64,000 bases of DNA, taken from IMG/VR virus record IMGVR_UViG_3300037088_000232; one strand, 5' to 3'. Below are positions 22,454-44,513 of this stretch, piece after piece. The position numbers and the translations under genes are program-made. The stretch is from a virus. The first letter of the stretch is position 1; every line of letters begins with the position of its first letter. Under the pieces are notes generated by a model. That model was not told the DNA's origin. It saw nothing but the letters and a program-made list of their open reading frames with translations, and ran no database searches.

Positions 22454-22804
22454 ATGGAAAATTTATTAACTTTCGAAAAATTCATAACAGAAATGGCTGG
22501 GAAAAAAGGTTTCATGGATGTTTATACCAAAAAATATGATCCAAGTAAAAGGGGTTATGGTAATCCCGATAAATGGAAAGATGCTTTTGATATTAGAATG
22601 GATAGGGATGTGGCTAAAGGAATCTTAGCTAACAAAGATCCATATGATGTACTTGGTATTCCAAAAACAGCCAATAAATACGAAATAAAGAGTGCATATA
22701 GAAAGTTAGCTATGGAGTTTCATCCAGACAGGAATCCAAATAAAGATACCACAAAAATTTTCCAAGAAATACAAGCTGCCTACGAAATGTTAAGAGAAGA
22801 TTAA
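22454..22804 (+). CDS. CTS-tagged J-domain (DnaJ-like) protein
   Basis: N-term MENLLTFEKFITE; J domain DPYDVLGIPKTANKYEIKSAYRKLAMEFHPDRNP. Confidence 0.8.
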   Translation: MENLLTFEKFITEMAGKKGFMDVYTKKYDPSKRGYGNPDKWKDAFDIRMDRDVAKGILANKDPYDVLGIPKTANKYEIKSAYRKLAMEFHPDRNPNKDTTKIFQEIQAAYEMLRED

Positions 22805-22880: not shown

Positions 22881-23069
22881 TTATCTTAATTTAACATTAG
22901 TTGCATTTAATCCTTTTTTTCCTTCGGTTAATTCGTACTCAACCTCATCGTTTTTTTGTATTTGATCCACTAAACCTGTTGAGTGTACGAAATACTCTTT
23001 TCCTGTTGATTCATCTAAGATAAAACCAAAACCTTTGGTTTCGTCAAAGAACTTTACTTTTCCATTCAT
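22881..23069 (-). CDS. cold-shock protein (CspA family)
   Basis: KGFGFI RNP1 motif, VHSTGL, 62 aa. Confidence 0.85.
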   Translation of the reverse strand: MNGKVKFFDETKGFGFILDESTGKEYFVHSTGLVDQIQKNDEVEYELTEGKKGLNATNVKLR

Positions 23070-25616: not shown

Positions 25617-25620
25617 AAAA

Positions 25621-25646
25621 CCCCATTCAGATTTCTCTAAATGGGG
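25621..25646. terminator. hairpin terminator (mainly for minus-strand flotillin gene)
   Basis: ccccatt / aatgggg 7-bp stem; A-run 25611-25620 gives T-run on minus strand. Confidence 0.55.
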
Positions 25647-25729
25647 TCTTAAATCCCGTTTCACCCGTTTGTGGAGTCGTTTTAACGGAAGCGAACTCTA
25701 CACCTCTCCTTGACAAAGTAATGACTACT

Positions 25730-28057
25730 TTATTTTGATGTAGTTGGTGGAAGAGTTTTCTGATTTGGTGTCTGATTTGGTGTCATTAGTTTAGTAAGAA
25801 CACCTGACAGTAATCCACTATCACCGTTTGTTACCAATGTATCAGGTACTATTTTCACACCTCCTTGTGCTATTTTTTCAGCGACTTGAACTTGAATAAC
25901 TCCTTCTTGACCAATAGCTGATTTTTGTTTTTCGTAACCTTCTGCAGTGGCTCCCATCTTTGCCTCGATGGCTACCCCCTCAGCTTTACCAATGGCCTCA
26001 ATACCAGCGGCCTCTCCTTCTTTCTTCAATTTTGTAGATTGACCTTCTCCTTCAGCGAGTTTAATTGTCTTTAATTTGACATTCTCGGCCACTTTTACAT
26101 CAATTTCAGAAGCAACCAATTCTGGTTGTTTATTAGCTTCGGCTGTAGTTTTCTCCATAGAGATACGAGATTGTTGAGCTTTCTGTTGTTCAAAGTACAT
26201 TGCCTGTTGCTGTTGAGCGATAATTCTTTCAGTCTGAGTTTTCATCAAATCCTCTGGTAACTGAATTTGACAAATAAGAACACTTACTAATTCGACATGG
26301 TATTTCACCAATTCCTGACGAGCTCTATCTTCAGCCTTCTGTTGTTCTTCATGACGATTTTGCATGAATGCCATGGCTGATGTTGAAGATGCTTGATTAC
26401 GGAATGACGAGTCAATCATCGGGTGGATGACATGCTCGACTAAGTTCTGGATTGAACCAATTTTTGCTACCATATAAGGTGCTTGGTCAGGACGAATCCT
26501 GATAACAACCTTAACGGATACACTGATTTCAAAACCATCATGAGATACAACTTTCAATGGATCAAAACGAGTTTCTTTCGAATCATCCCAATCAATTGTA
26601 ATGTTAGTGGTATCAACCACATATGCGATATAAGCTCTACGGTTCAAGTAATAAATCCCCGGACCAGCTACTTCCTGTTGAATACCTCTGAATCCCTTAG
26701 GAACTACATATCTTTCGATTCCGATATCCAATCTTTTTTCGATTCCACCTGCTGTAACACTATCGTCTTGAACTCCTTCGGCACTTGGTGTAATAATTGG
26801 GGAAGATTCCTTTTCTTTCTCAGCTCTTGCAACATCATCAACCATTTCTTTTACCTGAGGTGGTTCATCTCCGACATTTGATACAAGAACGGCCACTTGA
26901 CCACGCTCAATTACAGCGACATCATCAAGTTCGACACTAAACATCAACGGATTGATATAGTATGTACCCGGCTTCAACACATCAAATTGAGGTCCACGTT
27001 GACCACCATTCTTTAAGAATGTTGTTAAATCTTGGAAATTATTATGTCCTTCAATTGGTTTAGCTACATATTCAGTTTCAGGTAAAGGTTTACCATCACG
27101 AGCGACAACGATACCAATTTTTTTATCTGGAATAACAATAGTTTCTTTAATTTCGACTTTGAATAAAGCCACATTGATACGATATTTACCCGGAAGTAAT
27201 ATGGTAGTCTGAGGCCCTTTTTCTCCACCGTTATCTAAGAAAGTTTTTCCATCTTCAAAATTCTTTTGACCATCAATATATTTGGCTAATAAACGACCAT
27301 CACTGATAGGTTTACCGTCTTGAGCGGTTACGATACCAATCTGTCCTTTTTCAATAACTGTGATTGGAACTGGTGTTACTTTAAATAAAAGAGTATTGAT
27401 ACGATAGTTACCCGGAGGTAAAATTTGAATTTGAGGACCTTTCTCACCACCATTCTTTAAAAAAGAGGCGGCATCTTGAAATAAATCACAATCAACTACT
27501 TTACCAAAAATACGACCAGATGGTACTGGTTGTCCATCAATAGATTCTACTATACCAATTTGATTCTCAGCAATAACTGTAACTGGAACTGTCTTTACAT
27601 TAAAAAGTAAAGGATTAATACGATAGAGTCCCGGTGGTATGATAGGAATTTGAGGCCCTTTTTCACCACCATTGGTTAAGAATAATTCTCCGTCTTGAAA
27701 CAAATTACATTCAATTGGTTTAGCGAAAATTTTCCCAGATGGAACAGGATCTCCATCCGATGAAACAACTAAACCGATTTCATTTGTACCAATAACTGTG
27801 AAATCCTGTTTCTTTCTTTTATAAATGAAAGGGAATAAGAAGTACAAACCCGGACCCATTGCCCTTGCTTGAACTCCAATTTGTTTACTCATGGCAAAAA
27901 CTCTGTTTTTCGGCATCTGTGCACCCATCCAGCGTCTTTCCAATACTTTAATTTCTTTACCACCCACAATAAGGATTGAACTCCAAATCAGGACAATAAG
28001 AAAGATGACAGCTATAGAAATACCTGCTATCATCAAATAAAATAAAACTGTAGCCAT
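25730..28057 (-). CDS. flotillin/SPFH (band-7) family membrane protein with four internal ~77-aa repeats and C-terminal A/E/G-rich flotillin tail
   Basis: N-terminal TM; repeats IGIV..DG.P.P.G...AK.I....FQD...FL.NGGEKGPQ...PG.YRIN.LLF (approx nt 26857-27787); AEGEGQSTKLKKEGEAAGIEAIGKAEG tail. Confidence 0.7.
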   Translation of the reverse strand: MATVLFYLMIAGISIAVIFLIVLIWSSILIVGGKEIKVLERRWMGAQMPKNRVFAMSKQIGVQARAMGPGLYFLFPFIYKRKKQDFTVIGTNEIGLVVSSDGDPVPSGKIFAKPIECNLFQDGELFLTNGGEKGPQIPIIPPGLYRINPLLFNVKTVPVTVIAENQIGIVESIDGQPVPSGRIFGKVVDCDLFQDAASFLKNGGEKGPQIQILPPGNYRINTLLFKVTPVPITVIEKGQIGIVTAQDGKPISDGRLLAKYIDGQKNFEDGKTFLDNGGEKGPQTTILLPGKYRINVALFKVEIKETIVIPDKKIGIVVARDGKPLPETEYVAKPIEGHNNFQDLTTFLKNGGQRGPQFDVLKPGTYYINPLMFSVELDDVAVIERGQVAVLVSNVGDEPPQVKEMVDDVARAEKEKESSPIITPSAEGVQDDSVTAGGIEKRLDIGIERYVVPKGFRGIQQEVAGPGIYYLNRRAYIAYVVDTTNITIDWDDSKETRFDPLKVVSHDGFEISVSVKVVIRIRPDQAPYMVAKIGSIQNLVEHVIHPMIDSSFRNQASSTSAMAFMQNRHEEQQKAEDRARQELVKYHVELVSVLICQIQLPEDLMKTQTERIIAQQQQAMYFEQQKAQQSRISMEKTTAEANKQPELVASEIDVKVAENVKLKTIKLAEGEGQSTKLKKEGEAAGIEAIGKAEGVAIEAKMGATAEGYEKQKSAIGQEGVIQVQVAEKIAQGGVKIVPDTLVTNGDSGLLSGVLTKLMTPNQTPNQKTLPPTTSK

Positions 28058-28191
28058 TAATTTGTGTATTAAAATTGCCTACTCTTTTCACCATTTTCGG
28101 CTTACTGGTTGAATATTATATCATCGGAAGCCGAAAAAAGTTTTAAAAATTGTTTTAATATATACATAATAGAAAATAATATATCAATATT

Positions 28192-29013
28192 ATGAGAATA
28201 AAAAATTACAAAGAGTTCATAACGGAAAATGTTGATTCTGATAGATTAGGAACAGAATTAGAGATAGAAGGAATATCTAATAAAGAAATCGATTTGATAA
28301 ATAAATTAAAAAGAATATCTGAAAAATCAAATGTTGAAGGTAGCCACAATATCTTTTTTGAAATCCCAATTGTAGTTGGTAAAAGAAGTGGGAAAGATGT
28401 AATATGTAATTATTTTTATCTTCATGATAATCCATATTGGCATGAAAATTATCTGGTATTTCATGTAATGTATAATGAAAGAAAATATAAAAATCCAAAG
28501 ATATATGATAAAGAATTCGATTTCAGTTTAATGAACTATTTCGATATTAAAAGAGGGGTACATTCTCAAAGACCTTATAAGAAAGGTCAATTCCTGAAAC
28601 CAGTAGCTATGAAATTTCAATTTGATCAGGACTTCTTGGAAAAAATATATGATTCAGCTTCTAAACTGAATATGGAGTGGATAAAAAAATGTGAGGAAGT
28701 TCAAAAAGAAAGTCGTGATTGGAGTAGACTATGTAATCAAGAGAGAAAACCTGAAATTAGTTGGGAAAGACAATTATATCATACGAAATGTCAGATTTTT
28801 TATCATAAAATATTAAATGTACAAGAAGATTTAACAGACATTAGACGATTAGAAGAAATGGAAAAAGATGGTGAAAAAGTTTACACTGAAAAAATGAGAA
28901 AAGAAAATGATTATATGAAAGGTATTCTGGATGATATATTAAAAGATCCTGATTCCAATCTGTCCAAATTAATAAAGAAAGATAAAGAAAAGAAAAGAAA
29001 TATTAATTTATGA
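28192..29013 (+). CDS. CTS-tagged hypothetical protein
   Basis: N-term MRIKNYKEFITEN; 273 aa. Confidence 0.45.
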   Translation: MRIKNYKEFITENVDSDRLGTELEIEGISNKEIDLINKLKRISEKSNVEGSHNIFFEIPIVVGKRSGKDVICNYFYLHDNPYWHENYLVFHVMYNERKYKNPKIYDKEFDFSLMNYFDIKRGVHSQRPYKKGQFLKPVAMKFQFDQDFLEKIYDSASKLNMEWIKKCEEVQKESRDWSRLCNQERKPEISWERQLYHTKCQIFYHKILNVQEDLTDIRRLEEMEKDGEKVYTEKMRKENDYMKGILDDILKDPDSNLSKLIKKDKEKKRNINL

Positions 29014-29312
29014 AAAATAAAAATAGGATTCCCAAATCTTTTACCTTAGGTGGACTAAAATTTAAAGTCGAAACAAAAGAGAAGGTAAAACCAGCTGGTG
29101 GATCGTCTGATCCATTTGAGTGTATTATTCAAATATCAAAAACAGTAAAAAATTCAAAATGTTCTGAAGATTATCAAAGACAAACATTTTATCATGAATT
29201 AGTACATCAGATTTTTATCGCGTTAGGTGAATTGAAACTATCTGATAAAGAGAAACTTATACAGAGATTTTCTTTATTATTGGATCAATTCGAACAAACC
29301 AAAGAATTTTAA
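29010..29312 (+). CDS. small HExxH-motif protein (possible minimal zincin)
   Basis: FYHELVHQIF; ATGA overlap with upstream gene. Confidence 0.3.
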   Translation: MKNKNRIPKSFTLGGLKFKVETKEKVKPAGGSSDPFECIIQISKTVKNSKCSEDYQRQTFYHELVHQIFIALGELKLSDKEKLIQRFSLLLDQFEQTKEF

Positions 29313-29335
29313 TTTTTTTATTCCCGAAAAAGTAT

Positions 29336-29343
29336 TAATTTTG
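29336..29343 (+). promoter_or_regulatory. Bacteroidota-type -7 promoter element TAnnTTTG
   Basis: TAATTTTGTAGT 20 nt upstream of 29363 ATG; same 12-mer upstream of 31066. Confidence 0.4.
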
Positions 29344-29362
29344 TAGTGTAAAAATCCTATCA

Positions 29363-30262
29363 ATGGACACAAAGAAACTACAAAAACAAACTGCTGATAC
29401 ATTCAAAGAAAATTTCGGTTACACACCATTTTCTGAGCGTTTAAAAGATATTACAAATGAATTCTTTGAACTGATGAAATGGAATGATATAAAGAACATC
29501 AAGGAAGAAACAGGTGACTTGATGGCTTCTTTAATCATGTTGGCTGAGGAATCAGGATGGAATTTTGAAGATTTAGTTAAAGATACTCTCATAAAAATAA
29601 ACCGTAGAAGGGAACAATATAAGACACTTGGTAGGAAAATAAAAGTGGCTCTTTACGGTGGAGCTTTTGATATGATCCACGATGGTCATATTCAAACAGC
29701 TAAATTCGTTTTGGATACCAGTAATGAATTCGATGAAGTATGGATTTTACCATGTTTTCATCATATGTATAATAAAAGTATGGCACCGGCCGAACATCGT
29801 TTGGAGATGGCTCGAATAGCCGCTGAGGTTGACAAACGAATCAAAGTGTTCGATTATGAAATCAGAAATAAATTTTTCGGGGAAACCTTCTATTTTGTTA
29901 AAAGGTTAAAGGAAGAAACCAATCTTACAGAGATGTATAATTTTTCTATGATTATCGGTCAGGATAACGCCAATACATTCGATACATGGGTAAATTATCA
30001 GGAACTTGAAAGAATGATGAGATTTGTCATTATACCACGAAAAGGGGTCGAAAGGATGGGGAACATTGATTGGTATCTGAAACCCCCTCATATCTTCTTA
30101 AATAAGGAAAAAACGGGTATTATCGAAGCATCATCAACCGAATTAAGGAAGATGATGAAAAGCTATTGGAAAACACCAACCGAAAAGAAGAAAAATCAAT
30201 TATTGGAAAAATTAGATGTCAATGTTTTTGATTATATTTTAAGGAACAATCTATACCACTAA
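29363..30262 (+). CDS. MazG-like NTP pyrophosphohydrolase fused to NMN/NaMN adenylyltransferase (NadD/NMNAT-like)
   Basis: N-term MazG-like EETGDLMASLIMLAEESGWNFEDL..KINRR; C-term LYGGAFDMIHDGH ((H/T)xGH) and ASSTELR (ISSTxIR). Confidence 0.65.
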   Translation: MDTKKLQKQTADTFKENFGYTPFSERLKDITNEFFELMKWNDIKNIKEETGDLMASLIMLAEESGWNFEDLVKDTLIKINRRREQYKTLGRKIKVALYGGAFDMIHDGHIQTAKFVLDTSNEFDEVWILPCFHHMYNKSMAPAEHRLEMARIAAEVDKRIKVFDYEIRNKFFGETFYFVKRLKEETNLTEMYNFSMIIGQDNANTFDTWVNYQELERMMRFVIIPRKGVERMGNIDWYLKPPHIFLNKEKTGIIEASSTELRKMMKSYWKTPTEKKKNQLLEKLDVNVFDYILRNNLYH

Positions 30263-30996
30263 ACATAATTCGATATTCTGTAAGAGGTGTGAGTTTGTTT
30301 TAATAACACATTATTATCTTTTAAATTATAAAATAATACCTTCTCATTAATATTCACATTCTCCCTTTTCGACAATAAGATATTTTTCAGGTTCAAGAAT
30401 GTATTACAATATATATCCATGTTGTTTTCATTTCCGAAGGCGAATTGATCCCAAATCCAATCATTTATCACCCTATTCCCAACAAAAGGATCTAATCTAA
30501 GATATAAAGCATTATTCTGAATAGAATCTTTTATTTCCGTTTCATCAATAGAATTAAACACATAAGGTTGGATAATACTACACTCCATTTTTTCTCCAAA
30601 GTTTAAATCAAATCTGGTTCTGATAACCAGATCATACTTAATCCCACTTCTTTTTTGATATTCCAATCTTAATCTATTGACATTGTGTAATTTATAAAAC
30701 ATGGGAAACATACTCGGAAGAATATCTTTTATTTGATTATCATTTAAAAAATTTGAAAAATCATTCAATTGTTCTTTCATATCTGTGAAGTTCTCGAATT
30801 TACTGTTGATTGGTTTATATAAATTCAAAATATCAGATACGGAAATATCTTTCTCGATCCAAGTTGATATAAACACATCCGGACAAAATGGTTCTATGAG
30901 TGTTTTGTATATCGAATCGTAAAAATATTTGTAATTATCTGGACATTTGCCACATATAAGTAGAGCCGTTTTCATTATTTTTATATATTTTATCAA
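30259..30996 (-). CDS. hypothetical protein
   Basis: 245-aa ORF, ATGA-type overlap with 29363-30262 stop region. Confidence 0.4.
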   Translation of the reverse strand: MIKYIKIMKTALLICGKCPDNYKYFYDSIYKTLIEPFCPDVFISTWIEKDISVSDILNLYKPINSKFENFTDMKEQLNDFSNFLNDNQIKDILPSMFPMFYKLHNVNRLRLEYQKRSGIKYDLVIRTRFDLNFGEKMECSIIQPYVFNSIDETEIKDSIQNNALYLRLDPFVGNRVINDWIWDQFAFGNENNMDIYCNTFLNLKNILLSKRENVNINEKVLFYNLKDNNVLLKQTHTSYRISNYV

Positions 30997-31036
30997 TTTA
31001 TGTTTGTTGAAATTTTTTTATTTCACAAAAAAGCCG

Positions 31037-31044
31037 TAATTTTG
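31037..31044 (+). promoter_or_regulatory. Bacteroidota-type -7 promoter element TAnnTTTG
   Basis: TAATTTTGTAGT 22 nt upstream of 31066 ATG; TTTG about 30 nt further upstream. Confidence 0.4.
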
Positions 31045-31065
31045 TAGTCATAAAAATCAAAAACA

Positions 31066-31455
31066 ATGGAACTTCCCGGAATTTATAAAAGAGAAATCAT
31101 TGAAAAAGAGATTCGGAATAAACAGACCAACAGGAATGGTGGTTATCCGATGTATTTCAAACTCTATAAGGAGTTTAACCAGAAAATGAAGTCTGATTTT
31201 GTATTAATAAATTTCAAACCATTAATGAGGTTTAAAATTCGTTGTCAGATTACACTTCAATTCCTTTTCAAACCCCTGTTATCCCTGTTCCATACAGTAA
31301 CCAATTACGAAAGTAAATTCAAGCTTGTCGATGGTTCATTGGATAAAATCGAATCTTTTTCAAAAGAAACCACAATATACTTTCTCAAAGTGATTCCCAT
31401 TTTGTATATGGTATCGAACAAACCAACAGATAAAGATCTCGAAATCCTTAAATAA
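31066..31455 (+). CDS. hypothetical protein
   Basis: 129-aa ORF. Confidence 0.4.
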   Translation: MELPGIYKREIIEKEIRNKQTNRNGGYPMYFKLYKEFNQKMKSDFVLINFKPLMRFKIRCQITLQFLFKPLLSLFHTVTNYESKFKLVDGSLDKIESFSKETTIYFLKVIPILYMVSNKPTDKDLEILK

Positions 31456-31766
31456 TGGATAATATTATAGTAATCGGAATCGGACCAATTGGTAGTGCAC
31501 AACTCCGTACTCTTGAAATCGTTGGAAAGTTGGATGGTGCCGAAATCGAAATTATCCATGTTGAAAATTTAAATGAATTAAAAGAAAAAGGAATAGTCGG
31601 AGATCTGGTTATCAGTAATGAACCAATCATGGAATTAAGATCACTTCCACCTTTACCAGTAATAAACATTTCTGATTATAATTTTTTTACTGATAGTAGA
31701 AAAAGTAGATATCAGAAAAGAGAATTCAGGAAGCCAGCCACTCCCATAAAAAAGAGAAAGAAATGA
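31455..31766 (+). CDS. hypothetical protein
   Basis: 103-aa ORF, overlaps flanking genes by 1-4 nt. Confidence 0.4.
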   Translation: MDNIIVIGIGPIGSAQLRTLEIVGKLDGAEIEIIHVENLNELKEKGIVGDLVISNEPIMELRSLPPLPVINISDYNFFTDSRKSRYQKREFRKPATPIKKRKK

Positions 31767-32639
31767 AACACGAGAAACGAAAAGTAGCTCTCATTTCTGT
31801 ATTTGCGGCCATTTTTCTAACCACATTTAAATTGGGGATAGGAACTTGGACAAACAGTTTGGGTATTTTATCCGAGGCACTCCATTCGGGATTGGATTTA
31901 GTCGCCGCTTTGATTACCTTATATGCTGTCAAGGCGTCAGTTAAAGAGGCCGATAAGGATCATCATTATGGACATGGTAAGATTGAAAATTTTTCAGCCC
32001 TAATTGAAACATTCCTTCTGTTTATAACCTGTTTCTGGATTTGTTGGGAATCTATTCACCGATTAATCAATGGAAATGTTGATATAAAGATAAGTGTATT
32101 CAGTTATATCATCGTCATAACATCTTTGGAGATCCCGTAAACTTCATAGGACAGCTAAAAAATACAACAGTCCAGCATTGGAAGCCGACGCCATTCATTT
32201 TTCAACAGACATATGGAGTTCATCGGTTGTTCTTTTCGGTTTGATATGTGTGACGATAGGTAAGTTGGTTGGTATGAGATGGTTGTTCTATGCTGACTCC
32301 GTTGCCGCTTTGTTTGTCGCATTGATTGTTATTCATGTATCATACCGACTTGGAAGAAAAGCCGTAGATTCTTTACTTGATAAAGTACCCTTTGATGTAG
32401 CTAAAGATATTGAAGATGTCATAAAGAATTATGGAGATGATATTAAATGTTATCATGGATTTAAAATAAGACAATCTGGACATATCTACTATGTTGATGT
32501 CACCATTCATGTTGGATGTATTACATTGGTTGAGGCACATGAAATATCTGATGATTTAGAAGAAAAAATAAAAAAGGTTCAACCCTTTACTGATGTGACT
32601 ATTCATGTTGAACCACACAATCATCATTCTAAAAAATAA
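31763..32639 (+). pseudogene. cation-diffusion-facilitator (CDF) metal efflux transporter split by a frameshift near 32118-32140
   Basis: ORF1 31763-32140 has TM1-3 and HHYGHGKIE; ORF2 frame (TTG at 32178) reads LHRTAKKYNSPALEADAIHFSTD (CDF signature) back to a stop at 32118; C-terminal cytoplasmic domain intact. Confidence 0.65.
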
Positions 32640-33098
32640 TCAATATCCCCCGTTCCAATTAATTTTTGGAAAGTTATCTGGTTCATTTAATATCTTTTTT
32701 AGTGTTCTTTTTCTGTTTTCATTGATATTCTGTTCATCTGAATCCTCACCTAAACACGGCCTTATATATTCTAAAAATTTAATTAGATTATTGATATCAT
32801 CGATTGTTTCTAATCTAATTTGTAATTTTACTTTTCTGAAACGACATCCTAAAAATTTACTCGATGTTTCTACTTCACCGATATTATCCGATTGTTCATG
32901 TAAAATTCTATCATTTTTCTTATCATATCCTCGAATTATAATTTTACTCTGGGGATCTAATTTATCACTCAGAAAAGAATCCAAAATTTTATCTTTGAAT
33001 GGTATATCCCTTGAAAGAAAGTTATTGATAAATTGATTTAATTCTAATTCTTCTTCACTTTCGGTTGTGGTTATATTTTTCCCCGATTTTCGTATCAT
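32640..33098 (-). CDS. hypothetical protein
   Basis: Start placed at internal Met (MIRKSGKN) to avoid a 70-nt overlap. Confidence 0.35.
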   Translation of the reverse strand: MIRKSGKNITTTESEEELELNQFINNFLSRDIPFKDKILDSFLSDKLDPQSKIIIRGYDKKNDRILHEQSDNIGEVETSSKFLGCRFRKVKLQIRLETIDDINNLIKFLEYIRPCLGEDSDEQNINENRKRTLKKILNEPDNFPKINWNGGY

Positions 33099-33478
33099 TT
33101 TTTCAATTCCTTCAATTTTTTCTGAGCTTTTTTCAATTGGTTTTGGGCTTGTTCTATTTCCCATTCTCTATGACTTATCTCGGCATTGATTATATCCTGT
33201 TTCTTTTTTTCAATGGCCTTTTGAACCCTTTCCTTTTCTTCCAGAATGATACCATTGGTACAATGTAATTCTATCAGTTCTGGAATACCATAATCAGGAT
33301 AATTATTCGACCACCAAGTAACTTGACTTCTTGCAGGGCCTATCCTTGGATATATCTTAGCTTTCTTTATATCATCTACCCAACTATCTCCACTACCACT
33401 ATATCCCTTAGTCCTCAGCCATTTTCCGTCTTTACTTCTGACGGCATAGAATTTTAAATCAACTTCGATGTTTTTCAT
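33095..33478 (-). CDS. hypothetical protein with K/E-rich C-terminal coiled coil
   Basis: 127-aa ORF. Confidence 0.4.
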   Translation of the reverse strand: MKNIEVDLKFYAVRSKDGKWLRTKGYSGSGDSWVDDIKKAKIYPRIGPARSQVTWWSNNYPDYGIPELIELHCTNGIILEEKERVQKAIEKKKQDIINAEISHREWEIEQAQNQLKKAQKKLKELKK

Positions 33479-33891
33479 AATAATTTCAAATGTCCTGTTA
33501 TTTCATCTATTGTTTCTGGATAAGATGGCCCTATTGCAATACAAGTATTCGTTGGAACACCATCAAATTCGGTCAGACCAGAGTCCGTAATCAAAGAACA
33601 AGGTAATCCTTTATCTTTGGATTTTTGATATAAATCAAGTAATTCTGATTCACTATCACAACTAACAACAACTTTTGTGAATATACCATTCAACCATTGA
33701 TCCCAAGGACCATCCCCTCTATATCGAAAGATAATCATCTTCCATTCACCAGTTTCCAAATTTATTCTGTTTTCTTTTTCACATAAATCCAAAAAGGCTT
33801 TAAAAGAGGCATGAGCGCCCTGAGATACCATTTTACCTTTTCTCATATTGAGGTCTTTCCTCATAACAATTACTTGTTTCGGTTTTTCCAT
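33475..33891 (-). CDS. pth2: peptidyl-tRNA hydrolase, PTH2 family
   Basis: DLNMRKGKMVSQGAHAS ... LITDSGLTEF..IAIGP....IDEITGHLKLL matches PTH2 along full length. Confidence 0.8.
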   Translation of the reverse strand: MEKPKQVIVMRKDLNMRKGKMVSQGAHASFKAFLDLCEKENRINLETGEWKMIIFRYRGDGPWDQWLNGIFTKVVVSCDSESELLDLYQKSKDKGLPCSLITDSGLTEFDGVPTNTCIAIGPSYPETIDEITGHLKLL

Positions 33892-33947
33892 AAAAATTTA
33901 TATTTAGGTTAACTTACGAAGTTAACAAATTTTTTTGAATTAAAAAA

Positions 33948-34265
33948 TTATCTACAAAACCATTGATCTTTCGGAATATCATTATATGAATTAAATTCAT
34001 ATTCAACACCACCTATTTTTATTGTTACATTATATGGAATGAATTTAAAACAGATTGATTTTTCACCCATATCAATAATATCTTGATAGTTAATATCTGG
34101 AATGATATACTTAGTAAAAGATTGACCTTCAATTTGTTTATGTAAATATTTATCATCAATAGTAAATGAATTATCGAAAAGAAGTACACCGACCCCCTTT
34201 ACATTGTTATTTTTTTCGATAATCTTTAAATGTTCTTCTCGTGTTTGATTTATTTGTGTTGTCAT
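33948..34265 (-). CDS. hypothetical protein
   Basis: 105-aa ORF. Confidence 0.35.
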   Translation of the reverse strand: MTTQINQTREEHLKIIEKNNNVKGVGVLLFDNSFTIDDKYLHKQIEGQSFTKYIIPDINYQDIIDMGEKSICFKFIPYNVTIKIGGVEYEFNSYNDIPKDQWFCR

Positions 34266-34486
34266 AATTCTTCTAAAATTTCTTTTAATTTTTTAAATCT
34301 TTCATCATTAATAAACTGTTCGTTCCATAACTCAACCATTTGGTCACAAGTTTCAGAGTTCATTACTATAAAATTGGCTTTACCTCCAGTTTGTCTACCA
34401 ATGAGAAAAGTATTCTTCTCAGCATATTGATCTTTATATATTGGAATATTAAATACACCAGTTAATTCATCGCATTTTTCAATCAT
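34262..34486 (-). CDS. hypothetical small protein
   Basis: 74-aa ORF, ATGA overlap. Confidence 0.35.
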   Translation of the reverse strand: MIEKCDELTGVFNIPIYKDQYAEKNTFLIGRQTGGKANFIVMNSETCDQMVELWNEQFINDERFKKLKEILEEL

Positions 34487-34697
34487 CTTTTTCTGTATCT
34501 AATATTTCATCAAGTCTTTCTGACCTTTTATGATTAACGAAATCTTCAATCTTCATTTCTTTTCCATCACTACCAGTTACACCACCATAACCAATACTAC
34601 CACTGCATGTACCGTCAGGATGAACTATTTTTTCTTCTCTGATTCGAGTTATTTCTTCCCATTCTTTTTCAATCGAATTTTCTATTTCTTCTTTCAT
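34479..34697 (-). CDS. hypothetical small protein
   Basis: 72-aa ORF. Confidence 0.3.
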   Translation of the reverse strand: MKEEIENSIEKEWEEITRIREEKIVHPDGTCSGSIGYGGVTGSDGKEMKIEDFVNHKRSERLDEILDTEKDD

Positions 34698-34706
34698 ATT
34701 TCTATT

Positions 34707-35795
34707 TTATTTTTTCATTCTCCATTTATCATTCAATAATGAACTTTCATAAAAATCAGCATCCACTGTAAATCCTGTTAACCATTTAATAACTCTGACA
34801 TCCGCAGTTGTCAATTTTTCCTTGATAACTAAAATATTTCCTGAAATTCTTGAACAATCATCCGATGGAAATTCACATATACCTTTTTTCTTTAAGATAC
34901 ATTCATGATTAGTTTTCATCTTAATTTCAAAATCAAAAGGAATCAAATGTTTAATATCAGTTGGTTGATTATTTTTAAAACCAAAACATTTATCTTTCAT
35001 CACACATTTTTCACAATTCATTTCAGTGGGACGATAATAATGAGCATTGTAATCTCTTTCTAAATCGTGTGTATAAGATATTAAACAGGATGTTTTTCTA
35101 AATATTGGAATATTGTATAAATCTGATAACTCATCAAATATCTGTTGAACATCATTAGAAATTGATTTCTTATGTCCAAATTTAAATCCGGGATATGGTT
35201 TCAAATCTATATTGCTTTCTTCCCAATATTTTACTACCTCAGGAATACCTTGTAATCCAGAATAACCAATTGCAATATTAAAATCTTTAGCAATACTGAA
35301 TACATTTTTAATAGTTTCAAATGAATCGTTTATTCCATAACAAATTGGCCTAAATTCAATGGATTTATGATATTTATATTTTCTAAAATTTGCTACTCGT
35401 AAATTATATGATAATCGTTTGTTTGAATATCTATCAAACTCATGATCAATACCAAAAGTTGAAAAAGCCAAATGTAAATCAAGATTGATATCATTCGGTA
35501 AATCGAAATCTAATAATTCACCCTTTGTAATTATAACAACCGGACCTTTATGATTTTCTTTTTCTAATTTATGTAAATACTTTAGTGTTTTGTCTCTTTG
35601 AATCAATGGATCACCATAAAATAAATTAATTGAAATGGGTAGATTGATGAAATTTTTATTGATTTTGGATGGTAGACATGAATATTCGAATTCAGTATTA
35701 TTCTGGGATACTCTACAAAAGGCACAACCCAAACAATTCTTAGTATTTCGACCTATACAACAAAACGATTTAGATATGTATAATTCATCTATCAT
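34707..35795 (-). CDS. Cys-rich protein, possible Fe-S/radical-SAM-related enzyme (non-canonical motif)
   Basis: N-term SFCCIGRNTKNCLGCAFC; further CEKCVMKDKC and CEFPSDDC clusters. Confidence 0.3.
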   Translation of the reverse strand: MIDELYISKSFCCIGRNTKNCLGCAFCRVSQNNTEFEYSCLPSKINKNFINLPISINLFYGDPLIQRDKTLKYLHKLEKENHKGPVVIITKGELLDFDLPNDINLDLHLAFSTFGIDHEFDRYSNKRLSYNLRVANFRKYKYHKSIEFRPICYGINDSFETIKNVFSIAKDFNIAIGYSGLQGIPEVVKYWEESNIDLKPYPGFKFGHKKSISNDVQQIFDELSDLYNIPIFRKTSCLISYTHDLERDYNAHYYRPTEMNCEKCVMKDKCFGFKNNQPTDIKHLIPFDFEIKMKTNHECILKKKGICEFPSDDCSRISGNILVIKEKLTTADVRVIKWLTGFTVDADFYESSLLNDKWRMKK

Positions 35796-36001
35796 AAATC
35801 TAAATTATCTGGAAATTCAAAATTATATTGGTATCCATCTTTCAATTCTTTATCATCCAAGATATTATCTAACTTTTCTTTTCTTTCAAAATTTAAAAGT
35901 GATTCTTCATCGGTGAATGTAATCCCTTTATAAAATACCATAAAAAACTTCTTTTTCTTCGTGAAAAGAAATGAATCGTTTATTTTATCTTCTTCTGTCA
36001 T
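35792..36001 (-). CDS. small protein with RKEKLDNILDD motif
   Basis: 69 aa; motif shared with the 5431-6937 array. Confidence 0.35.
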   Translation of the reverse strand: MTEEDKINDSFLFTKKKKFFMVFYKGITFTDEESLLNFERKEKLDNILDDKELKDGYQYNFEFPDNLDL

Positions 36002-36082
36002 GTTATATCATATTCTGGAACTTTTGTAATTCTAACAATAGAATTATTTACCCAAATACCTTTATTTTCTGGGAGTTCTTTA

Positions 36083-36196
36083 TTATCTTAAAATATTATC
36101 TAATTTTTCTTTTCTTGTATAATTTTGAAATTCTTCTTCGTTATCAAAAAATTTTCCATCATAAAGAATTGAAATATTTGATTCCCTTTCACTCAT
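36083..36196 (-). CDS. 37-aa mini-ORF, partial duplicate of 35792-36001 (ends RKEKLDNILR)
   Basis: Translated by hand; 27-nt near-identical DNA repeat (35861-35888 vs 36091-36117). Confidence 0.3.
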   Translation of the reverse strand: MSERESNISILYDGKFFDNEEEFQNYTRKEKLDNILR

Positions 36197-36392
36197 AATA
36201 TCATTATAGGAAAAAACAGAAAGATTGTTTTACTTATTCAGTTTCTCTTTGTATTCCAAAAATGTTCTTTCCAACATTTTTATAGCTTCTTGTTTATCAC
36301 AATCAGTTTTGAGATTTACCTTAGATAAGGATTCAACTATTCTTACTGAATATATGAATTCAAGGGTTAATTCGGTATCTTTTTGAAGTTGT

Positions 36393-36914
36393 TCAATTGT
36401 TATGTCCATTACAATTTGTTATTTTTTCTATGTCTTTGATATATATATTAAAATAACTATCTACTATGATATTAAAAAATTCATTAAATTGTTTAGTATA
36501 AGTAGAAATAGTAGTTATATTTTTATCAATCCATTTAAATTCGTTAATTTCTTCTGAATAAGAAACATTTTCGAAGATAACTGAATGGTTATCTTGCTTT
36601 ATGTGGGGTCTACCATGTTTAGAAACAAAATATTTTTCAATTAATGGATCTCTATCACATTTGAAATCAATAAGAATATCATTATAAAAAATCAATCGTA
36701 TATTCAATATATCAATATTTAGCATCTTGTATCTTTGACATACAAATTTTCTAACAAGAGGGCAATCCGTAGAATCTGTTATTTCTTTAATACATGGATA
36801 TTTAGAAATAACAAAATCCACTTTCGTTTTGTTTAATTTAAAATCACCCAATCCCGTTTGTGATTTTGTAGTGATACAAAACATTAATAGTAATATAATT
36901 AATAAAGTCCTCAT
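36393..36914 (-). CDS. secreted protein (signal peptide)
   Basis: MRTLLIILLLMFCITTKSQTG leader; 173 aa. Confidence 0.45.
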   Translation of the reverse strand: MRTLLIILLLMFCITTKSQTGLGDFKLNKTKVDFVISKYPCIKEITDSTDCPLVRKFVCQRYKMLNIDILNIRLIFYNDILIDFKCDRDPLIEKYFVSKHGRPHIKQDNHSVIFENVSYSEEINEFKWIDKNITTISTYTKQFNEFFNIIVDSYFNIYIKDIEKITNCNGHNN

Positions 36915-36978
36915 TCTTTTTATAGATGAAAACTAATTACTGGTTTAACATTTTAATATATAAAGCGAAATAAATTTA

Positions 36979-37176
36979 GTGTTTATGGATAAATTTTCAG
37001 ATTTACTCAAGGAAAATTCCGAATGGTTGGGTCATAAGGAATTAAAAAAAATCCAAAAACTTCCACAAAGACAGGATTCACTATCTGAACAAATGCAAGA
37101 TTTATATCATGTAGCCAATCATTTTGGATTATATGACGCGGCTGATTACATCCGTAAAAATTTCATTGAAAAATAA
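36979..37176 (+). CDS. small protein, weak CTS-like N-terminus
   Basis: MFMDKFSDLLKEN. Confidence 0.35.
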   Translation: MFMDKFSDLLKENSEWLGHKELKKIQKLPQRQDSLSEQMQDLYHVANHFGLYDAADYIRKNFIEK

Positions 37177-37188
37177 AGGATAATTATT

Positions 37189-37437
37189 ATGAAAAGATTT
37201 ACTCAATTTGTAAAAGAAGAAAAAGAGTACAGAGCAAAAGCCAGAACTGATAGATTTCATTTCGGAACTGAAATAACTGGTGTTGAAGTGGAACTCATTT
37301 CTGATTTGTATGGTAGTGAGGTTTCTGATACTGAAGTAAGAGTGGTAAGTGAGGGAACAATTTGTGTAATAGCTGGTGATACCATAGAACAATTTAAGAA
37401 AGAATTACAAGATGTAATTGATAAATACAAAATATGA
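37189..37437 (+). CDS. CTS-tagged small protein
   Basis: MKRFTQFVKEE; first of four overlapping CTS genes. Confidence 0.4.
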   Translation: MKRFTQFVKEEKEYRAKARTDRFHFGTEITGVEVELISDLYGSEVSDTEVRVVSEGTICVIAGDTIEQFKKELQDVIDKYKI

Positions 37438-38027
37438 AAACATTTACTGAATTTTTATTGGAAGCTAAGGGGGGTAAGAAAGTAATAGCTTATCACTTAT
37501 CTAACCAATTGGAACATATGTTAAAAGCTGATTTCAAAATGGACCATAGTAGTGATATTTCCATATTTGGTCGTGCCATTTATTTTTCCAGCAGTCCAGA
37601 TATAAGATTTTATCCGATGAGGGGAGGTAAAAAAATATATACTTGTAAATTTGAAATAACATTGGAAGAACCTTTATTGGACATGAATCGTGAGATACCA
37701 GTATTTGAAGCGAACCGTCTTTTAAATGATTTTCGTATCATATTAGAGAATAAGAATCCAACATATTTGAGAGAATTACAGAATTATAATTTTGAAAGTG
37801 AATTTAAAGATACTATTCAGATGGGAGAATTTTTTGATACCATATACACTCGTCATGTAGAATCAAGTAAGTATTTCGATTATTTCATACATAATTATTT
37901 GAAATACAATTCATTTCAATATTTTCAAAATTCTTTAACAGATTATATAACTGAAAAAGAGGATTATGGCATATCATATGGAGTATATGATAAAAAGAAT
38001 ATAAAATTCATAGATGGACCATTTTAA
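37434..38027 (+). CDS. CTS-tagged ART-fold-like protein (H / S-S-S / E motifs)
   Basis: MKTFTEFLLEA (7 of 11 identical to T4 CTS); VIAYHLSN ... IYFSSSPD ... KFEITL. Confidence 0.4.
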   Translation: MKTFTEFLLEAKGGKKVIAYHLSNQLEHMLKADFKMDHSSDISIFGRAIYFSSSPDIRFYPMRGGKKIYTCKFEITLEEPLLDMNREIPVFEANRLLNDFRIILENKNPTYLRELQNYNFESEFKDTIQMGEFFDTIYTRHVESSKYFDYFIHNYLKYNSFQYFQNSLTDYITEKEDYGISYGVYDKKNIKFIDGPF

Positions 38028-38454
38028 AACATTTAAAGACTTTTTACTTGAATCTACCAACATAAAAACCAAAGAAGAATTATTTGGTAAAAAAATGTAT
38101 CATGGTACTACCTTAGAAACTTGGAGAGAATTGGAGAAAAGTTATTTATTTGTAACAGATGAAGAAGAACATGCTCAATATCACGCTATAAGTCGAACAG
38201 AGGGAATGATACATAATGGGGATAAGGAATACGATAAATTAACGGCTGTCGTGTTTGAAATTGTGATAGATGAAGAAATATTAAATTTAGAATGGGTAGT
38301 TGATGATGATGATGGGAACAGATCATTTTTTGAAACATGGTTAGATTCTTACAATGCAGTAGGAACATTTGTAATTATGGGAATTGATTCAAGTAAATTT
38401 AAAGAAGTATTCAAAGAAAAAATAACAAAAGAAACATCAATAAGATATTTATGA
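38014..38454 (+). CDS. CTS-tagged ART-fold-like protein (H-G-T)
   Basis: MDHFKTFKDFLLES; KMYHGTTLETW ... LFVTDEE ... VVFEIVI. Confidence 0.4.
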   Translation: MDHFKTFKDFLLESTNIKTKEELFGKKMYHGTTLETWRELEKSYLFVTDEEEHAQYHAISRTEGMIHNGDKEYDKLTAVVFEIVIDEEILNLEWVVDDDDGNRSFFETWLDSYNAVGTFVIMGIDSSKFKEVFKEKITKETSIRYL

Positions 38455-39350
38455 AAAATTTTAGAACATATGATGAATTTCTCTTGGAATTTCAGAAAAA
38501 AGATGTTTCGTTGTTAGAGACTTTGGATGACTATTTTACCATCGGATTTGAAATTGAAATGGACACTGACCATAGAAGAATTAGAAGTCTACCTACTCCC
38601 CCAAAAATAATAACCAATGAATCGAAGAAATTAAATGTATTATCGATTCAGGATAGAAGAAAAGTGATGGATATCAAAAATAATTTTCCAAATTTCTTCC
38701 GAAAATATTTCGATATTTTGGAATATCATTATGAAGGGACAGTTTCATCTGGAATGGAATTTGTAACTCCACCATTTCATAGCTTACAAGAATCTAAAGA
38801 ATTCATTAAAATATTTTTCGAAGATTTTGAAAAACAAAATAAATGGTTTTTTAATGATAAAACAAGTATTCATATTAATATCGGTACAAAAAAACCGAAA
38901 TCAAGATGGAATGTTGTTAAAGGTGTTATGATGTTATCGGATGATTATACATTTAAAAACATTGAAGCTCGAAAAACCTGTGGATATTGTAGTAGTTTAA
39001 AGACTGAGATTTTTATGATGATAATAAACAATGATAAAAATTATCAAAAGACATCTAATAATAGAAATATAACTGACATGAATAAGAATCAAATAGAGAA
39101 CCTTATTGAACAAATTATTCAAAAAATATTTACATCCACTCAAAAAACTTATAATATTAATTTTTGGAAATTATTCAATAAAAACTATGTAGAATTTCGT
39201 CAAGTTGGTGGAGAAAATATAAATGAAAATATTGTAATTAATAAAATGATGTATTTTGTTTATTGTGTTTATTTAATGACCAGTTCATATAAGAAAGATG
39301 AATATATTAGAAAATTATTCAGCTTCGTAGAAAAAATTAGAAAATTTTAG
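38451..39350 (+). CDS. CTS-tagged glutamine-synthetase-like amidoligase (Amidoligase_2-like)
   Basis: MKNFRTYDEFLLE; GFEIEMDTD, SGMEFVTPPF, TSIHINIG motifs. Confidence 0.5.
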   Translation: MKNFRTYDEFLLEFQKKDVSLLETLDDYFTIGFEIEMDTDHRRIRSLPTPPKIITNESKKLNVLSIQDRRKVMDIKNNFPNFFRKYFDILEYHYEGTVSSGMEFVTPPFHSLQESKEFIKIFFEDFEKQNKWFFNDKTSIHINIGTKKPKSRWNVVKGVMMLSDDYTFKNIEARKTCGYCSSLKTEIFMMIINNDKNYQKTSNNRNITDMNKNQIENLIEQIIQKIFTSTQKTYNINFWKLFNKNYVEFRQVGGENINENIVINKMMYFVYCVYLMTSSYKKDEYIRKLFSFVEKIRKF

Positions 39351-39380
39351 ATTGATTGATTATAAAGGTAAGGGACATCA

Positions 39381-40283
39381 TTAATCTTTTTCCTTAACTA
39401 TTTTTTCAACATCTTTTTTCTTTAATTGTGGCATTTCCTTTCTCTCGGTGAATTCACTATGAGGACTTGGAATTTTTTTAATGTTTTTAGCTAGATATTC
39501 AGTTGGACTTAATTTTTTCTTATCTTTATGAAAGATTTTTTCATAGAGATCTTCAACCATTTTAGTTTTATCCTTACCTGTTCTCCAAGGATCTTCATCA
39601 GCCATTTTTTTAATTATCTTTTGAAGTTTATCTGGTAATTTTTCCTCTTTTGCTAATTTATAAAGATTGTACTTCTGTTCACCAGTTTGATCTTGAGTTC
39701 TGGATTGATATTCTTTTAAAATAGCATTCAAAATAGGTAGTGCCTTTTCTATTGGAAGATTAATTTTGGTACATTTAATTTTACATTTTGGGTTTAGGAT
39801 AAATACAGAACCCCATCGGTGATGACCATCAATAATATAGTTATCTGAACTGATTAAGATATCTCTGTCATTATACTTACCTTTAATAACATCCTTGACG
39901 AATTCTGCGTTACTTAGAATCCTTGATATAATTTGGTCCAAGTAAATGGTTGTCTGACCGGGATTGAGTTTCTTAGCCCTTATTTTGACCTTTTCTCCCT
40001 CTATGTCATTTTCTTCAACTTCTTTTAAAAATTTAGTTCTATTGGATTCAACTTCTAAGAAATCACCGATTTTTTTCTTCATGTTTTGAAGATCCACCTT
40101 ACCATCCTCGCTCATTACTCCCATTTGCTTGAGTACATCGTTGTATTCTCTTTGATTTATCTTCTTGTCTAACATTTCTTTTATTTGAGTATATCTTATC
40201 ATAAAAACACTGATTAGTTTTATTAGAATATATATTGTTTTCCAATTTGGAAAATTTTTGGAAAAATTATAATATATATACAA
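39381..40283 (-). CDS. ParB/Srx-fold (ParB-like nuclease domain) protein; true start may be the internal Met near 40199
   Basis: ISSDNYIIDGHHRW (DGHHR motif). Confidence 0.5.
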   Translation of the reverse strand: MYIYYNFSKNFPNWKTIYILIKLISVFMIRYTQIKEMLDKKINQREYNDVLKQMGVMSEDGKVDLQNMKKKIGDFLEVESNRTKFLKEVEENDIEGEKVKIRAKKLNPGQTTIYLDQIISRILSNAEFVKDVIKGKYNDRDILISSDNYIIDGHHRWGSVFILNPKCKIKCTKINLPIEKALPILNAILKEYQSRTQDQTGEQKYNLYKLAKEEKLPDKLQKIIKKMADEDPWRTGKDKTKMVEDLYEKIFHKDKKKLSPTEYLAKNIKKIPSPHSEFTERKEMPQLKKKDVEKIVKEKD

Positions 40284-40369
40284 ATGTTAAAAAATGTTAA
40301 AATTTTTTAAAACAAATATTGAAACCTGTGATATAACAGGTATAAAAAATAATAAAACAAATAAAAATT

Positions 40370-40618
40370 ATGAAAAAGTTAATTGCAATTTTAAGTATTT
40401 TAATGATTGTTTCTTTTACGGCTTGTAACAACACAGTCAAAGAGGAAGCTGTGGCTAAAGCAAAAACAGATTCTATCAGAGTTGATTCTATTAAGAAAGA
40501 TTCAATTCAGAAGGTTTTAGTTTTAACTCAAAAGGCTGATTCTATTAAGAAGGCTGATTCTATTACCAAATGTACAAAGAAATGTACAAAGAAAACAAAG
40601 AAAGTTGTGAAGAAGTAA
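40370..40618 (+). CDS. small lysine-rich lipoprotein with DSIKK repeats
   Basis: Signal peptide + lipobox FTAC; repeats DSIKKDSIQK/ADSIKKADSI, CTKKCTKK. Confidence 0.5.
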   Translation: MKKLIAILSILMIVSFTACNNTVKEEAVAKAKTDSIRVDSIKKDSIQKVLVLTQKADSIKKADSITKCTKKCTKKTKKVVKK

Positions 40619-40636
40619 TTCTCAATAAACTTTAAA

Positions 40637-40670
40637 GAAAAGGGATGTCGTTGACACCCCTTTTTCTTTT
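40637..40670. terminator. bidirectional rho-independent terminator
   Basis: gggatgtc-gtt-gacacccc stem followed by T5CT4; A-run on other side. Confidence 0.65.
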
Positions 40671-41550
40671 ATAATTGTTCCTTACATTTCAATAAATTCT
40701 GTTCTTGCTCTTTTGTTAATTGAGGATATTCCAGATTTAATTTTTTCATTCTCTCAACCAAAATTTTCGAAACAATAAGTCGTGATGTTTTTTTATGATT
40801 GGCCGGAACAACATACCAAGGACAATCATCGGTGGATGTTTCATTAATCAGATCTTCATAACATTTCATATAATCACCCCAGAACTGACGCTCTTTTAAG
40901 TCAGATTCCGAAAATTTCCAATTCTTAGATTTATCATCAATCCTCTCCAGTAATCTTTCTTTTTGTTCTTTTTTGGATATGTTCAAGAATATTTTTATAA
41001 CGACTGTTCCATTTTTATGAAGCATCTTTTCAAAATTTCTTATCTGTTCATATCTTTCTTCAAAGATATCCTTATGAATCAAAACGGTTGGAATTCTCTG
41101 AAATTTTATCAGATCATGAACCTTAACTACGAGAACTTCTTCATAATAGGAACGATTAAAGATACCAATGTGTCCTCTCTCTGGTAAACTTTTGTGAGCT
41201 TTCCATAAGAAATCATGATTCAATTCCTCTGAAGTGGGTTGTTTAAAACTATAAACCTGAGTTGCTTGGGGATTAAGACCCGACATTACATGCTTAACGA
41301 TTCCGTCTTTACCAGCCGTATCAAGCGCTTGAATAATTAATAGTATTGAATATTTACCATCAGCATATAACTTATCCTGTAAATCAATGAGGCTTTTTAT
41401 GTTCCCCTCTATTTGTTCGGTAATATCGGAATCGACATCATTCAAATCAATATCATTTAAATTAATATCAACTTTTCCCTTACCGTTTATTTCAAATTGT
41501 TTTATATTCATATTTTTTCCTCTAAAAATTGTTTTATATCGAGCATACAT
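40669..41550 (-). CDS. ppk2: polyphosphate kinase 2 (PPK2) family nucleotide phosphotransferase
   Basis: Walker A DTAGKDG, IFNRSYYEE, KIFLNISKKEQKERLLER, PWYVVPANHK. Confidence 0.85.
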   Translation of the reverse strand: MYARYKTIFRGKNMNIKQFEINGKGKVDINLNDIDLNDVDSDITEQIEGNIKSLIDLQDKLYADGKYSILLIIQALDTAGKDGIVKHVMSGLNPQATQVYSFKQPTSEELNHDFLWKAHKSLPERGHIGIFNRSYYEEVLVVKVHDLIKFQRIPTVLIHKDIFEERYEQIRNFEKMLHKNGTVVIKIFLNISKKEQKERLLERIDDKSKNWKFSESDLKERQFWGDYMKCYEDLINETSTDDCPWYVVPANHKKTSRLIVSKILVERMKKLNLEYPQLTKEQEQNLLKCKEQL

Positions 41551-42217: not shown

Positions 42218-42664
42218 TTATGATAGTATAGTTTTTACGATTGAACCAATAGTTTTATTATCTGCACGACCAGAAAAGAATTTGGTGGCCACACCCATCA
42301 CCTTACCCATATCACGAATTGAAGTGGCTCCAGTTTCAGTTATGATTTCTTTCACTTTTTCAGTGATTTCTTCAACTGATAATTGTTCTGGAAGATATGT
42401 TTTATAGACTGTAATAAGAAGCATTTCATGATCAACCAAATCCACTCTACCCCCTTGAGCATATTGAGTAGCGGATTCTGTACTCTGACTAACCATTTTC
42501 TGAATAACTTTCATTACTTGTTCATCAGTCAATAGTTCTTTACCATCTTTGGCTTTTTCAACCTGAATAGTAGATTTAATCAATCTAAGAGCCTCTAATT
42601 TTTCGTTTTCTTGTCTTAAAATTGATTCTTTGATATCGGAATTAATCTTCTCTTCGAGATTCAT
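42218..42664 (-). CDS. GatB/YqeY-domain protein
   Basis: LRLIKSTIQ..., KTYLPEQLSVEEI, IRDMGKVMGVATKFFSGRADNKTI. Confidence 0.65.
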   Translation of the reverse strand: MNLEEKINSDIKESILRQENEKLEALRLIKSTIQVEKAKDGKELLTDEQVMKVIQKMVSQSTESATQYAQGGRVDLVDHEMLLITVYKTYLPEQLSVEEITEKVKEIITETGATSIRDMGKVMGVATKFFSGRADNKTIGSIVKTILS

Positions 42665-43463: not shown

Positions 43464-43496
43464 AATAATTTATTTTTGTTAAATTAATTTTTATTT

Positions 43497-43967: not shown

Positions 43968-43979
43968 TTGAATTTATTT

Positions 43980-44506: not shown

Positions 44507-44513
44507 ATGTGTT

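Follow-up and report, generated by a model that had tools for sequence, protein, structure and literature searches.

A Pth2-family peptidyl-tRNA hydrolase with a beta-hairpin insertion, encoded in the genome of an apparently huge uncultivated phage

The 64,000-nucleotide stretch of viral DNA analysed here (IMG/VR record IMGVR_UViG_3300037088_000232; hereafter, the window) includes an ORF for what is probably a catalytically competent, stand-alone Pth2, a phage copy that would keep tRNA recycling from limiting translation. Pth2 would cleave the ester bond of peptidyl-tRNA, and that of N-acyl-aminoacyl-tRNA, released from ribosomes, and a phage with its own copy would avoid a shortage of recycled tRNA while its AT-rich genes are heavily translated during infection. 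Pth activity is both limiting and essential in bacteria, and the bar minigenes of phage lambda kill Pth-deficient hosts. We infer both the enzyme activity and the physiological role of the window protein; the tRNA-recycling role is proposed on the basis of family, fold, active site and conservation, together with the linkage of Pth2 to tRNA arrays in related phages.

The family assignment is unequivocal in Pfam, where PF01981 (PTH2) matches the 138-aa ORF from position 2 to the last of its 115 profile positions (E = 5.6e-32; 110.8 bits, gathering cutoff 23), confirming the full-length PTH2 match reported by a first-pass annotation of the same sequence. Of the two motifs quoted there, the C-terminal GHLKLL is present but GKGK is not, the sequence reading RKGKMVSQGAHAS. 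The protein also passes the cutoff of NCBIfam TIGR00283 (arch_pth2; 108.6 versus 82) and, at 110.9 bits, misses the equivalog cutoff of 126 for NF003314/PRK04322, a shortfall consistent with a putative divergent phage/bacterial subfamily carrying a hairpin insertion. Its PHROGs family, phrog_1866, has the label 'unknown function'. Among proteins of solved structure, the best match is Methanocaldococcus jannaschii Pth2 (MJ0051; PDB 2zv3; E = 1.4e-28, 46% identity), followed among PDB sequence matches by the enzymes of Pyrococcus, Sulfolobus, Archaeoglobus and Thermoplasma and by human Bit1.

The residues K20, D103 and T107 align with K18, D86 and T90 of Sulfolobus solfataricus Pth2 (1xty), which we take to be the catalytic residues of the Sulfolobus enzyme; Fromant et al. 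(2005, Biochemistry 44:4294) are reported to have identified them by mutagenesis. An alignment of 98 close homologues shows no variation at any of the three positions, nor does one with ten relatives and 2 archaeal enzymes (Table 1). The first-pass annotation had named the absence of catalytic residues on alignment as one observation that would overturn its assignment, and the alignment, now made, retains every one of them.

An AlphaFold model of the protein, built from a 99-sequence alignment, has a mean pLDDT of 95.2 and a pTM of 0.88. When this model was compared with the PDB by Foldseek, the top 14 matches were all Pth2/Bit1, the TM-score relative to the target being 0.81-0.89 for the crystal structures among them. 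All matches with E <= 0.001 are Pth2/Bit1 structures, apart from one weak match to the unannotated protein 2gax. On this modelling evidence, the window protein can be predicted with confidence to have the Pth2 alpha/beta fold.

Table 1. Positions, in the window, of the Pth2 gene, its catalytic and inserted segments, its neighbours and other genes discussed in the text
Feature	Position	Strand	Remarks
Pth2 CDS, 138 aa	33475..33891	-	ATG start, TGA stop; from ORF list and sequence
Lys20 codon	33832..33834	-	Opposite Lys18 of 1xty; invariant
Asp103-Thr107 codons (D-S-G-L-T)	33571..33585	-	Opposite Sulfolobus Asp86-Thr90; D103, G105 and T107 invariant
Beta-hairpin insertion, residues 38-54, between helix 1 and helix 2	33730..33780	-	From alignment gap and model
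127-aa ORF downstream of Pth2	33095..33478	-	Start overlaps Pth2 stop (ATGA)
152-aa ORF, third of co-directional run	32640..33098	-	Start overlaps stop of 127-aa ORF; called on identical contigs L001-L003
56-nt AT-rich spacer upstream of Pth2	33892..33947		Small inverted repeat GTTAACTT-ACG-AAGTTAAC
J-domain protein	22454..22804	+	
Cold-shock domain protein	22881..23069	-	
YqeY/GatB-like protein	42218..42664	-	Pfam YqeY, E = 1.4e-41; 8.3 kb from Pth2
ADP-ribosylation set	23188-23688, ~4212-4709, 57034-58190, 59399-60955, 7526-8410	-, +, -, -, -	ART-PolyVal / PARG

Compared with the solved enzymes, the protein has an insertion of about 20 residues (a 19-residue gap relative to 2zv3), which in the model leaves the C-terminal end of helix 1 and forms strands at residues 38-44 and 48-54. 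The insertion is found in all close homologues and in the bacterial relatives, its sequence being variable. When the family profile is compared with the PDB, it splits into two stretches on each solved Pth2, 1xty excepted, and no hairpin form was found among the solved Pth2 structures; the recent entry 24bt, a 127-aa peptidyl-tRNA hydrolase, is without the hairpin as well. The hairpin might contribute contacts with tRNA or between the protomers of a dimer. A bolder proposal is that the hairpin-bearing Pth2 proteins of bacteria and large phages constitute a functionally distinct subfamily, in which the hairpin alters recognition of the tRNA or substrate (for example, N-acetyl-aminoacyl-tRNA produced by GNAT toxins, or phage-encoded tRNAs); the phage copy would then genuinely act against defence or protect the tRNA pool, instead of being a simple spare Pth. 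We regard this proposal as improbable.

Pth2 is a real and maintained gene: the identical protein is encoded on 18 contigs from several samples, the largest of 444,681 bp, and homologues with 55-71% identity lie on phage contigs of up to 618 kb. As far as the alignments indicate, the gene is under purifying conservation. A protein-database search returned 4750 Pth2 relatives (E <= 1e-5), the best of which (55-71% identity) come from metagenomic contigs of up to 531 kb, and at least 506 stretches in IMG/VR encode a relative, on contigs of up to 618 kb. In GenBank phages, tblastn detects Pth2 in 34 records, many of them annotated as peptidyl-tRNA hydrolase already. These records comprise jumbo phages of Ralstonia, Xanthomonas, Agrobacterium, Sinorhizobium, Stenotrophomonas, Pseudomonas and Salicola, four huge metagenomic phages, and mycobacteriophages; RsoM2USA, XacN1, Atu_ph07, SCTP-2, Myrna and Baka are among the named phages. 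No GenBank phage protein exceeds 55% identity to the window protein. The 34 GenBank records and the at least 506 IMG/VR stretches contradict the initial description of Pth2 as unusual in a phage. PTH2 has been described in a survey of jumbo phages, with a proposed role in ribosome rescue (Iyer et al., 2021), ORF188 of RaK2 was noted as a Pth2 in 2013, and Pth2 is routinely named in several phage genome papers. The literature thus already covers the family, its occurrence in large phages and the role proposed for it, and the window protein adds one member. A search of the open literature found no report of an experimental test of any phage Pth2.

The source genome appears to be that of a huge uncultivated phage of ~736 kb, with a DNA polymerase closest to that of a 735-kb phage. 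The 127-aa protein encoded next to Pth2 recurs, identical, on a contig of 736,551 bp. The DNA polymerase fragment at 1308-2393 (+) is 66.8% identical to that of a 735,411-bp 'uncultured phage' (LR756501/LR756503) and 40-42% identical to those of genomes of 634-642 kb; an identity of 66.8% to LR756501 indicates a different phage of similar size. Megablast of window positions 25000-45000 against GenBank phages gave no match. The 735-kb and 634-642-kb genomes belong to the Mahaphage clade, for which Bacteroidetes hosts are predicted (Al-Shayeb et al., 2020), and by analogy with these relatives, the window phage may also infect Bacteroidetes. The window has a GC content of ~29%, and ORFs read with the standard genetic code cover 87% of it. 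Recoding of stop codons was considered and rejected on the basis of this coverage and because none of the longest ORFs gains length when stop codons are recoded. In addition to DNA polymerase B fragments, a primase-like protein and an HNH homing endonuclease, the window encodes UDG, a DNA methyltransferase, dCMP deaminase, PARG and several ART-PolyVal proteins. Genes for ADP-ribosylation are unusually dense, with at least five for ART-PolyVal proteins and one for a microbial PARG-type glycohydrolase (Table 1).

Within the window, Pth2 is gene 6 in a co-directional run on the minus strand, which extends from ~36001 down to 32640. A scan for promoters and terminators around Pth2 performed no better than on shuffled sequence (31 promoter-like sites versus 29.8 expected). 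Pfam and PADLOC returned no match for the small proteins around Pth2, including the products of the 127-aa and 152-aa ORFs, and PADLOC-DB returned none for Pth2 or six neighbouring proteins. The 127-aa protein comes from a small family (32 members); its model is confident (pLDDT 94), and a search of the PDB gave no significant fold match, the best (E = 0.013) being a phage neck protein. On contig L176, from a related phage, the gene for the 127-aa protein again adjoins Pth2; in more distant relatives the two are not adjacent, and the arrangement looks like lineage synteny and not a functional pair. A 127-aa ORF also follows Pth2 in locus L007; its relationship to the window's ORF was considered and rejected, the two not being homologous.

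Polyphosphate kinase 2 (PPK2; 40669-41550, -) and a fusion of MazG with an NMNAT-like cytidylyltransferase (29363-30262, +) flank the accessory region. In L007 and L176, a CTP_transf_like gene is found no more than ~4 kb from Pth2, and the 304-aa product in L176 is similar in size to the 299-aa fusion in the window. A cation-diffusion-facilitator gene (Cation_efflux plus ZT_dimer; 31763-32639, +) is interrupted by a +1 frameshift, located in a run of TTT at ~32125-32135, and reads as two ORFs. The same split is present in three independent assemblies (L001-L003), indicating that it is not a read error; it may reflect a pseudogene, a phase-variable gene or a programmed frameshift. A radical-SAM protein (24813-25616, +) weakly matches prokaryotic viperins in PADLOC (pVip, E = 1.4e-5), and its gene adjoins SprT-like and Band_7/SPFH genes. 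The genes for cold-shock, J-domain and YqeY proteins, which the first-pass annotation had combined with Pth2 into a translation-related set, do exist (Table 1), but the case for a module is weak, as they lie 8-11 kb from Pth2, on both strands and with many unrelated genes between. YqeY is the only one of these context genes that recurs near Pth2 in other phages.

The surroundings of Pth2 in related phages were analysed using 160 Pth2-centred loci, in which ORFs were called, compared by all-against-all BLAST and clustered; viral counts refer to the 80 best IMG/VR loci, dereplicated to 58 lineages. No conserved protein partner of Pth2 was found, as no neighbour family occurs in more than 6 of the 58 viral lineages. 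The commonest viral neighbours are RNA ligase PF09414 (6 lineages), HD_4 hydrolase (6), YqeY (5, at distances below ~4 kb), homing endonucleases (5) and RlaP (4), and one viral locus has TyrRS and PNKP near Pth2. The largest neighbour 'cluster' proved to be the antisense ORF of Pth2 itself, and spurious Arg-rich ORFs arose in genomes of high GC content.

tRNA genes are a far more frequent neighbour. At least one tRNA gene is found no more than 5 kb from Pth2 in 32 of the 58 viral lineages; in 14, the number is five or higher, with a maximum of 20. Of the 329 tRNA genes in the 80 best IMG/VR loci, 313 have the orientation of Pth2. The median distance from Pth2 to the nearest tRNA gene is 434 nt, and in 13 loci this distance is less than 30 nt. 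In many uncultivated phages Pth2 lies inside same-strand arrays of 11-20 tRNA genes, for example in L033, L037, L049, L065, L074, L076 and L085 (Pth2 at ~5001-5430). Suppressor-type tRNAs (amber or opal; anticodon CTA or TCA) are encoded in twelve loci, and tmRNA in one (L085). The tRNA density around Pth2, as calculated for Pth2-centred loci only, is 0.42 per kb, which would far exceed what a whole phage genome could sustain. The 64-kb window includes no tRNA gene, and none was found near Pth2 in its closest relatives (L016, L017 and L019); the argument from tRNA arrays therefore draws on phages less closely related to this one.

Pth2 is also widespread in cellular genomes. In a set with one genome per GTDB species, at least 555 stretches from bacterial and archaeal assemblies encode close Pth2 relatives, the 80 best of which include many from Kofleriaceae/Haliangiales, Chitinophaga, Bacteroides/Phocaeicola and Clostridium, at 45-55% identity. 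The characterization of this protein as archaeal/eukaryotic-type is thus incomplete, its distribution not being confined to those groups. Chromosomal bacterial Pth2 proteins with the hairpin are 126-143 aa in length. In Bacteroides ilei (L118, 3613-5396, +), a hairpin-type Pth2 gene overlaps the end of hisS, with groES/groEL ~2 kb downstream, and the hisS-pth2 arrangement in Bacteroides looks like a housekeeping context. In Clostridium oryzae DSM 28571 (L102, 4506-5423, +), one 305-aa ORF has an N-terminal GNAT and a C-terminal Pth2 domain, whereas related Clostridium species have a stand-alone 143-aa Pth2 starting at the internal MDRRTKQ. The C. oryzae ORF may be a real fusion or the result of a lost stop codon, and as a general clue to function the fusion was rejected, being found in C. 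oryzae only.

The main rival to a role in tRNA recycling is counter-defence. Pth2 could free peptides from tRNAs on stalled or split ribosomes after cleavage by anticodon nucleases, or could hydrolyse the N-acetyl-aminoacyl-tRNA made by GNAT toxins of the TacT/AtaT/ItaT type. The ribosome-rescue version is that already proposed for jumbo-phage PTH2 (Iyer et al., 2021), and for the second version there is a bacterial precedent in that Pth reverses acetylation by TacT (PMC9241777). The RNA-repair genes found within 5 kb of Pth2, namely those for the PF09414 ligase, HD_4 and RlaP (the nearest ~400 nt from the start of Pth2) and the PNKP-TyrRS locus, would suit such a function, as would the single GNAT-PTH2 ORF of C. 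oryzae and the abundance in the window of conflict-type genes, the ART-PolyVal and PARG genes included. However, each of these associations occurs in ~10% of lineages at most, a figure that refers to Pth2-centred loci only, and the window itself has no RNA-repair gene adjoining Pth2. The GNAT-PTH2 ORF is confined to one species whose relatives have a stand-alone Pth2, the search of PADLOC-DB was negative for Pth2 and its six neighbours, and hisS-pth2 in Bacteroides resembles a housekeeping arrangement. Taken together, counter-defence is a doubtful explanation, to be kept in view behind tRNA recycling.

A further reading is that Pth2 is a passenger gene with little phage-specific function, either taken up from a lineage of bacterial hosts or passed between huge phages. 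Relatives bearing the insertion, with 47-54% identity, are found on chromosomes in assemblies of Bacteroides, Phocaeicola, Chitinophaga, Clostridium and Kofleriaceae/Haliangiales, and in a rough neighbour-joining tree, viral and bacterial sequences are intermixed. The DNA polymerase of the window is nearest to that of the 735-kb phage, in a clade with predicted Bacteroidetes hosts. Pth2 is considered accessory and patchy because the closest huge phages by polymerase, the 735-kb and 634-642-kb phages in GenBank, gave no tblastn match to it, and the neighbours of Pth2 vary between lineages. In the same tree, however, the window Pth2 belongs to a clade of 15, made up of 13 viral sequences, the window's own and one from a 'Promethearchaeota' MAG contig; this clade is nested in a larger mixed viral/bacterial clade, and the two archaeal enzymes lie outside. 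The nearest relatives (55-71% identity) are all viral or metagenomic and this clade is mostly viral, which suggests that the gene has long resided in phages; the active site shows strict conservation, and the recurrent placement in tRNA arrays argues for a selected function. We consider a passenger gene unlikely, and less probable than counter-defence. The MAG contig in question (L096; JAFGOA010000025.1, 'Promethearchaeota archaeon', 37.7 kb) encodes a Pth2 64% identical to that of the window and has RNA ligase, HD_4 and other neighbours in common with huge-phage loci in IMG/VR; a phage origin, with misassignment to an archaeal MAG during binning, is probable.

Least probable of all, and very unlikely by our estimate, is a function in host shut-off or another non-canonical activity, in which Pth2 would attack host aminoacyl- or initiator tRNA or the hairpin would extend it to a new substrate or to binding without catalysis: the clade-specific hairpin was found to have no precedent in structure or biochemistry, and Bit1, the human Pth2 homologue, has a moonlighting role, but the active site is canonical, the hairpin form occurs in a bacterial housekeeping context, and nothing in the sequence (Pfam, PADLOC) suggests toxicity or an immunity partner.

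The window Pth2, for which tRNA recycling is the role preferred here, can be set against five known systems. Archaeal Pth2 (2zv3, 1xty) shares with the window protein the fold, the Lys/Asp/Thr active site, an identical C-terminal ITGHLKLL and, bar one insertion, the length. Of the two, only the window protein has the ~20-residue hairpin, and it is, moreover, phage-encoded and not the sole cellular Pth. E. coli Pth (Pth1) catalyses the same reaction on the same substrate class as the Pth2 family, whereas its fold and catalytic residues are unrelated; Pth1 is monomeric and Pth2 dimeric, and no similarity to Pth1 was found in the window protein. Bacterial chromosomal Pth2, as in Bacteroides ilei, Chitinophaga, Clostridium and Kofleriaceae/Haliangiales, has the hairpin in common with the window protein; the bacterial genes are in housekeeping-like contexts, whereas that of the window is among small uncharacterised genes. 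Pth2 is thus not foreign to bacteria, the hairpin-bearing clade being common in assemblies of Bacteroidota, Kofleriaceae/Haliangiales and Clostridium.

The remaining two systems are those of other phages. Pth2 of mycobacteriophages (Myrna gp36, Baka gp70 and cluster C phages) belongs to the same family, with 49-54% identity, and is annotated as peptidyl-tRNA hydrolase. It spans only ~113 aa and so is without the hairpin, and it lies inside tRNA arrays, unlike Pth2 of the window. A study of tRNA arrays in cluster C mycobacteriophages likewise placed Pth2 within them (Morgado and Vicente, 2018; PMC5966550), and the finding of Pth2 with same-strand tRNA arrays in more than half of the sampled lineages generalises that observation. 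The jumbo-phage PTH2 proteins of RsoM2USA, XacN1 and Atu_ph07 (Iyer et al., 2021) are full-length relatives from the same family with 43-55% identity; those of RsoM2USA and XacN1 match over ~129-134 aa, which implies that they have the same insertion. The window protein differs from them in its source, an uncultivated phage of ~736 kb akin to the 735-kb phage. Overall, the window Pth2 matters little at face value, and represents one more case of large phages with their own translation-maintenance enzymes.
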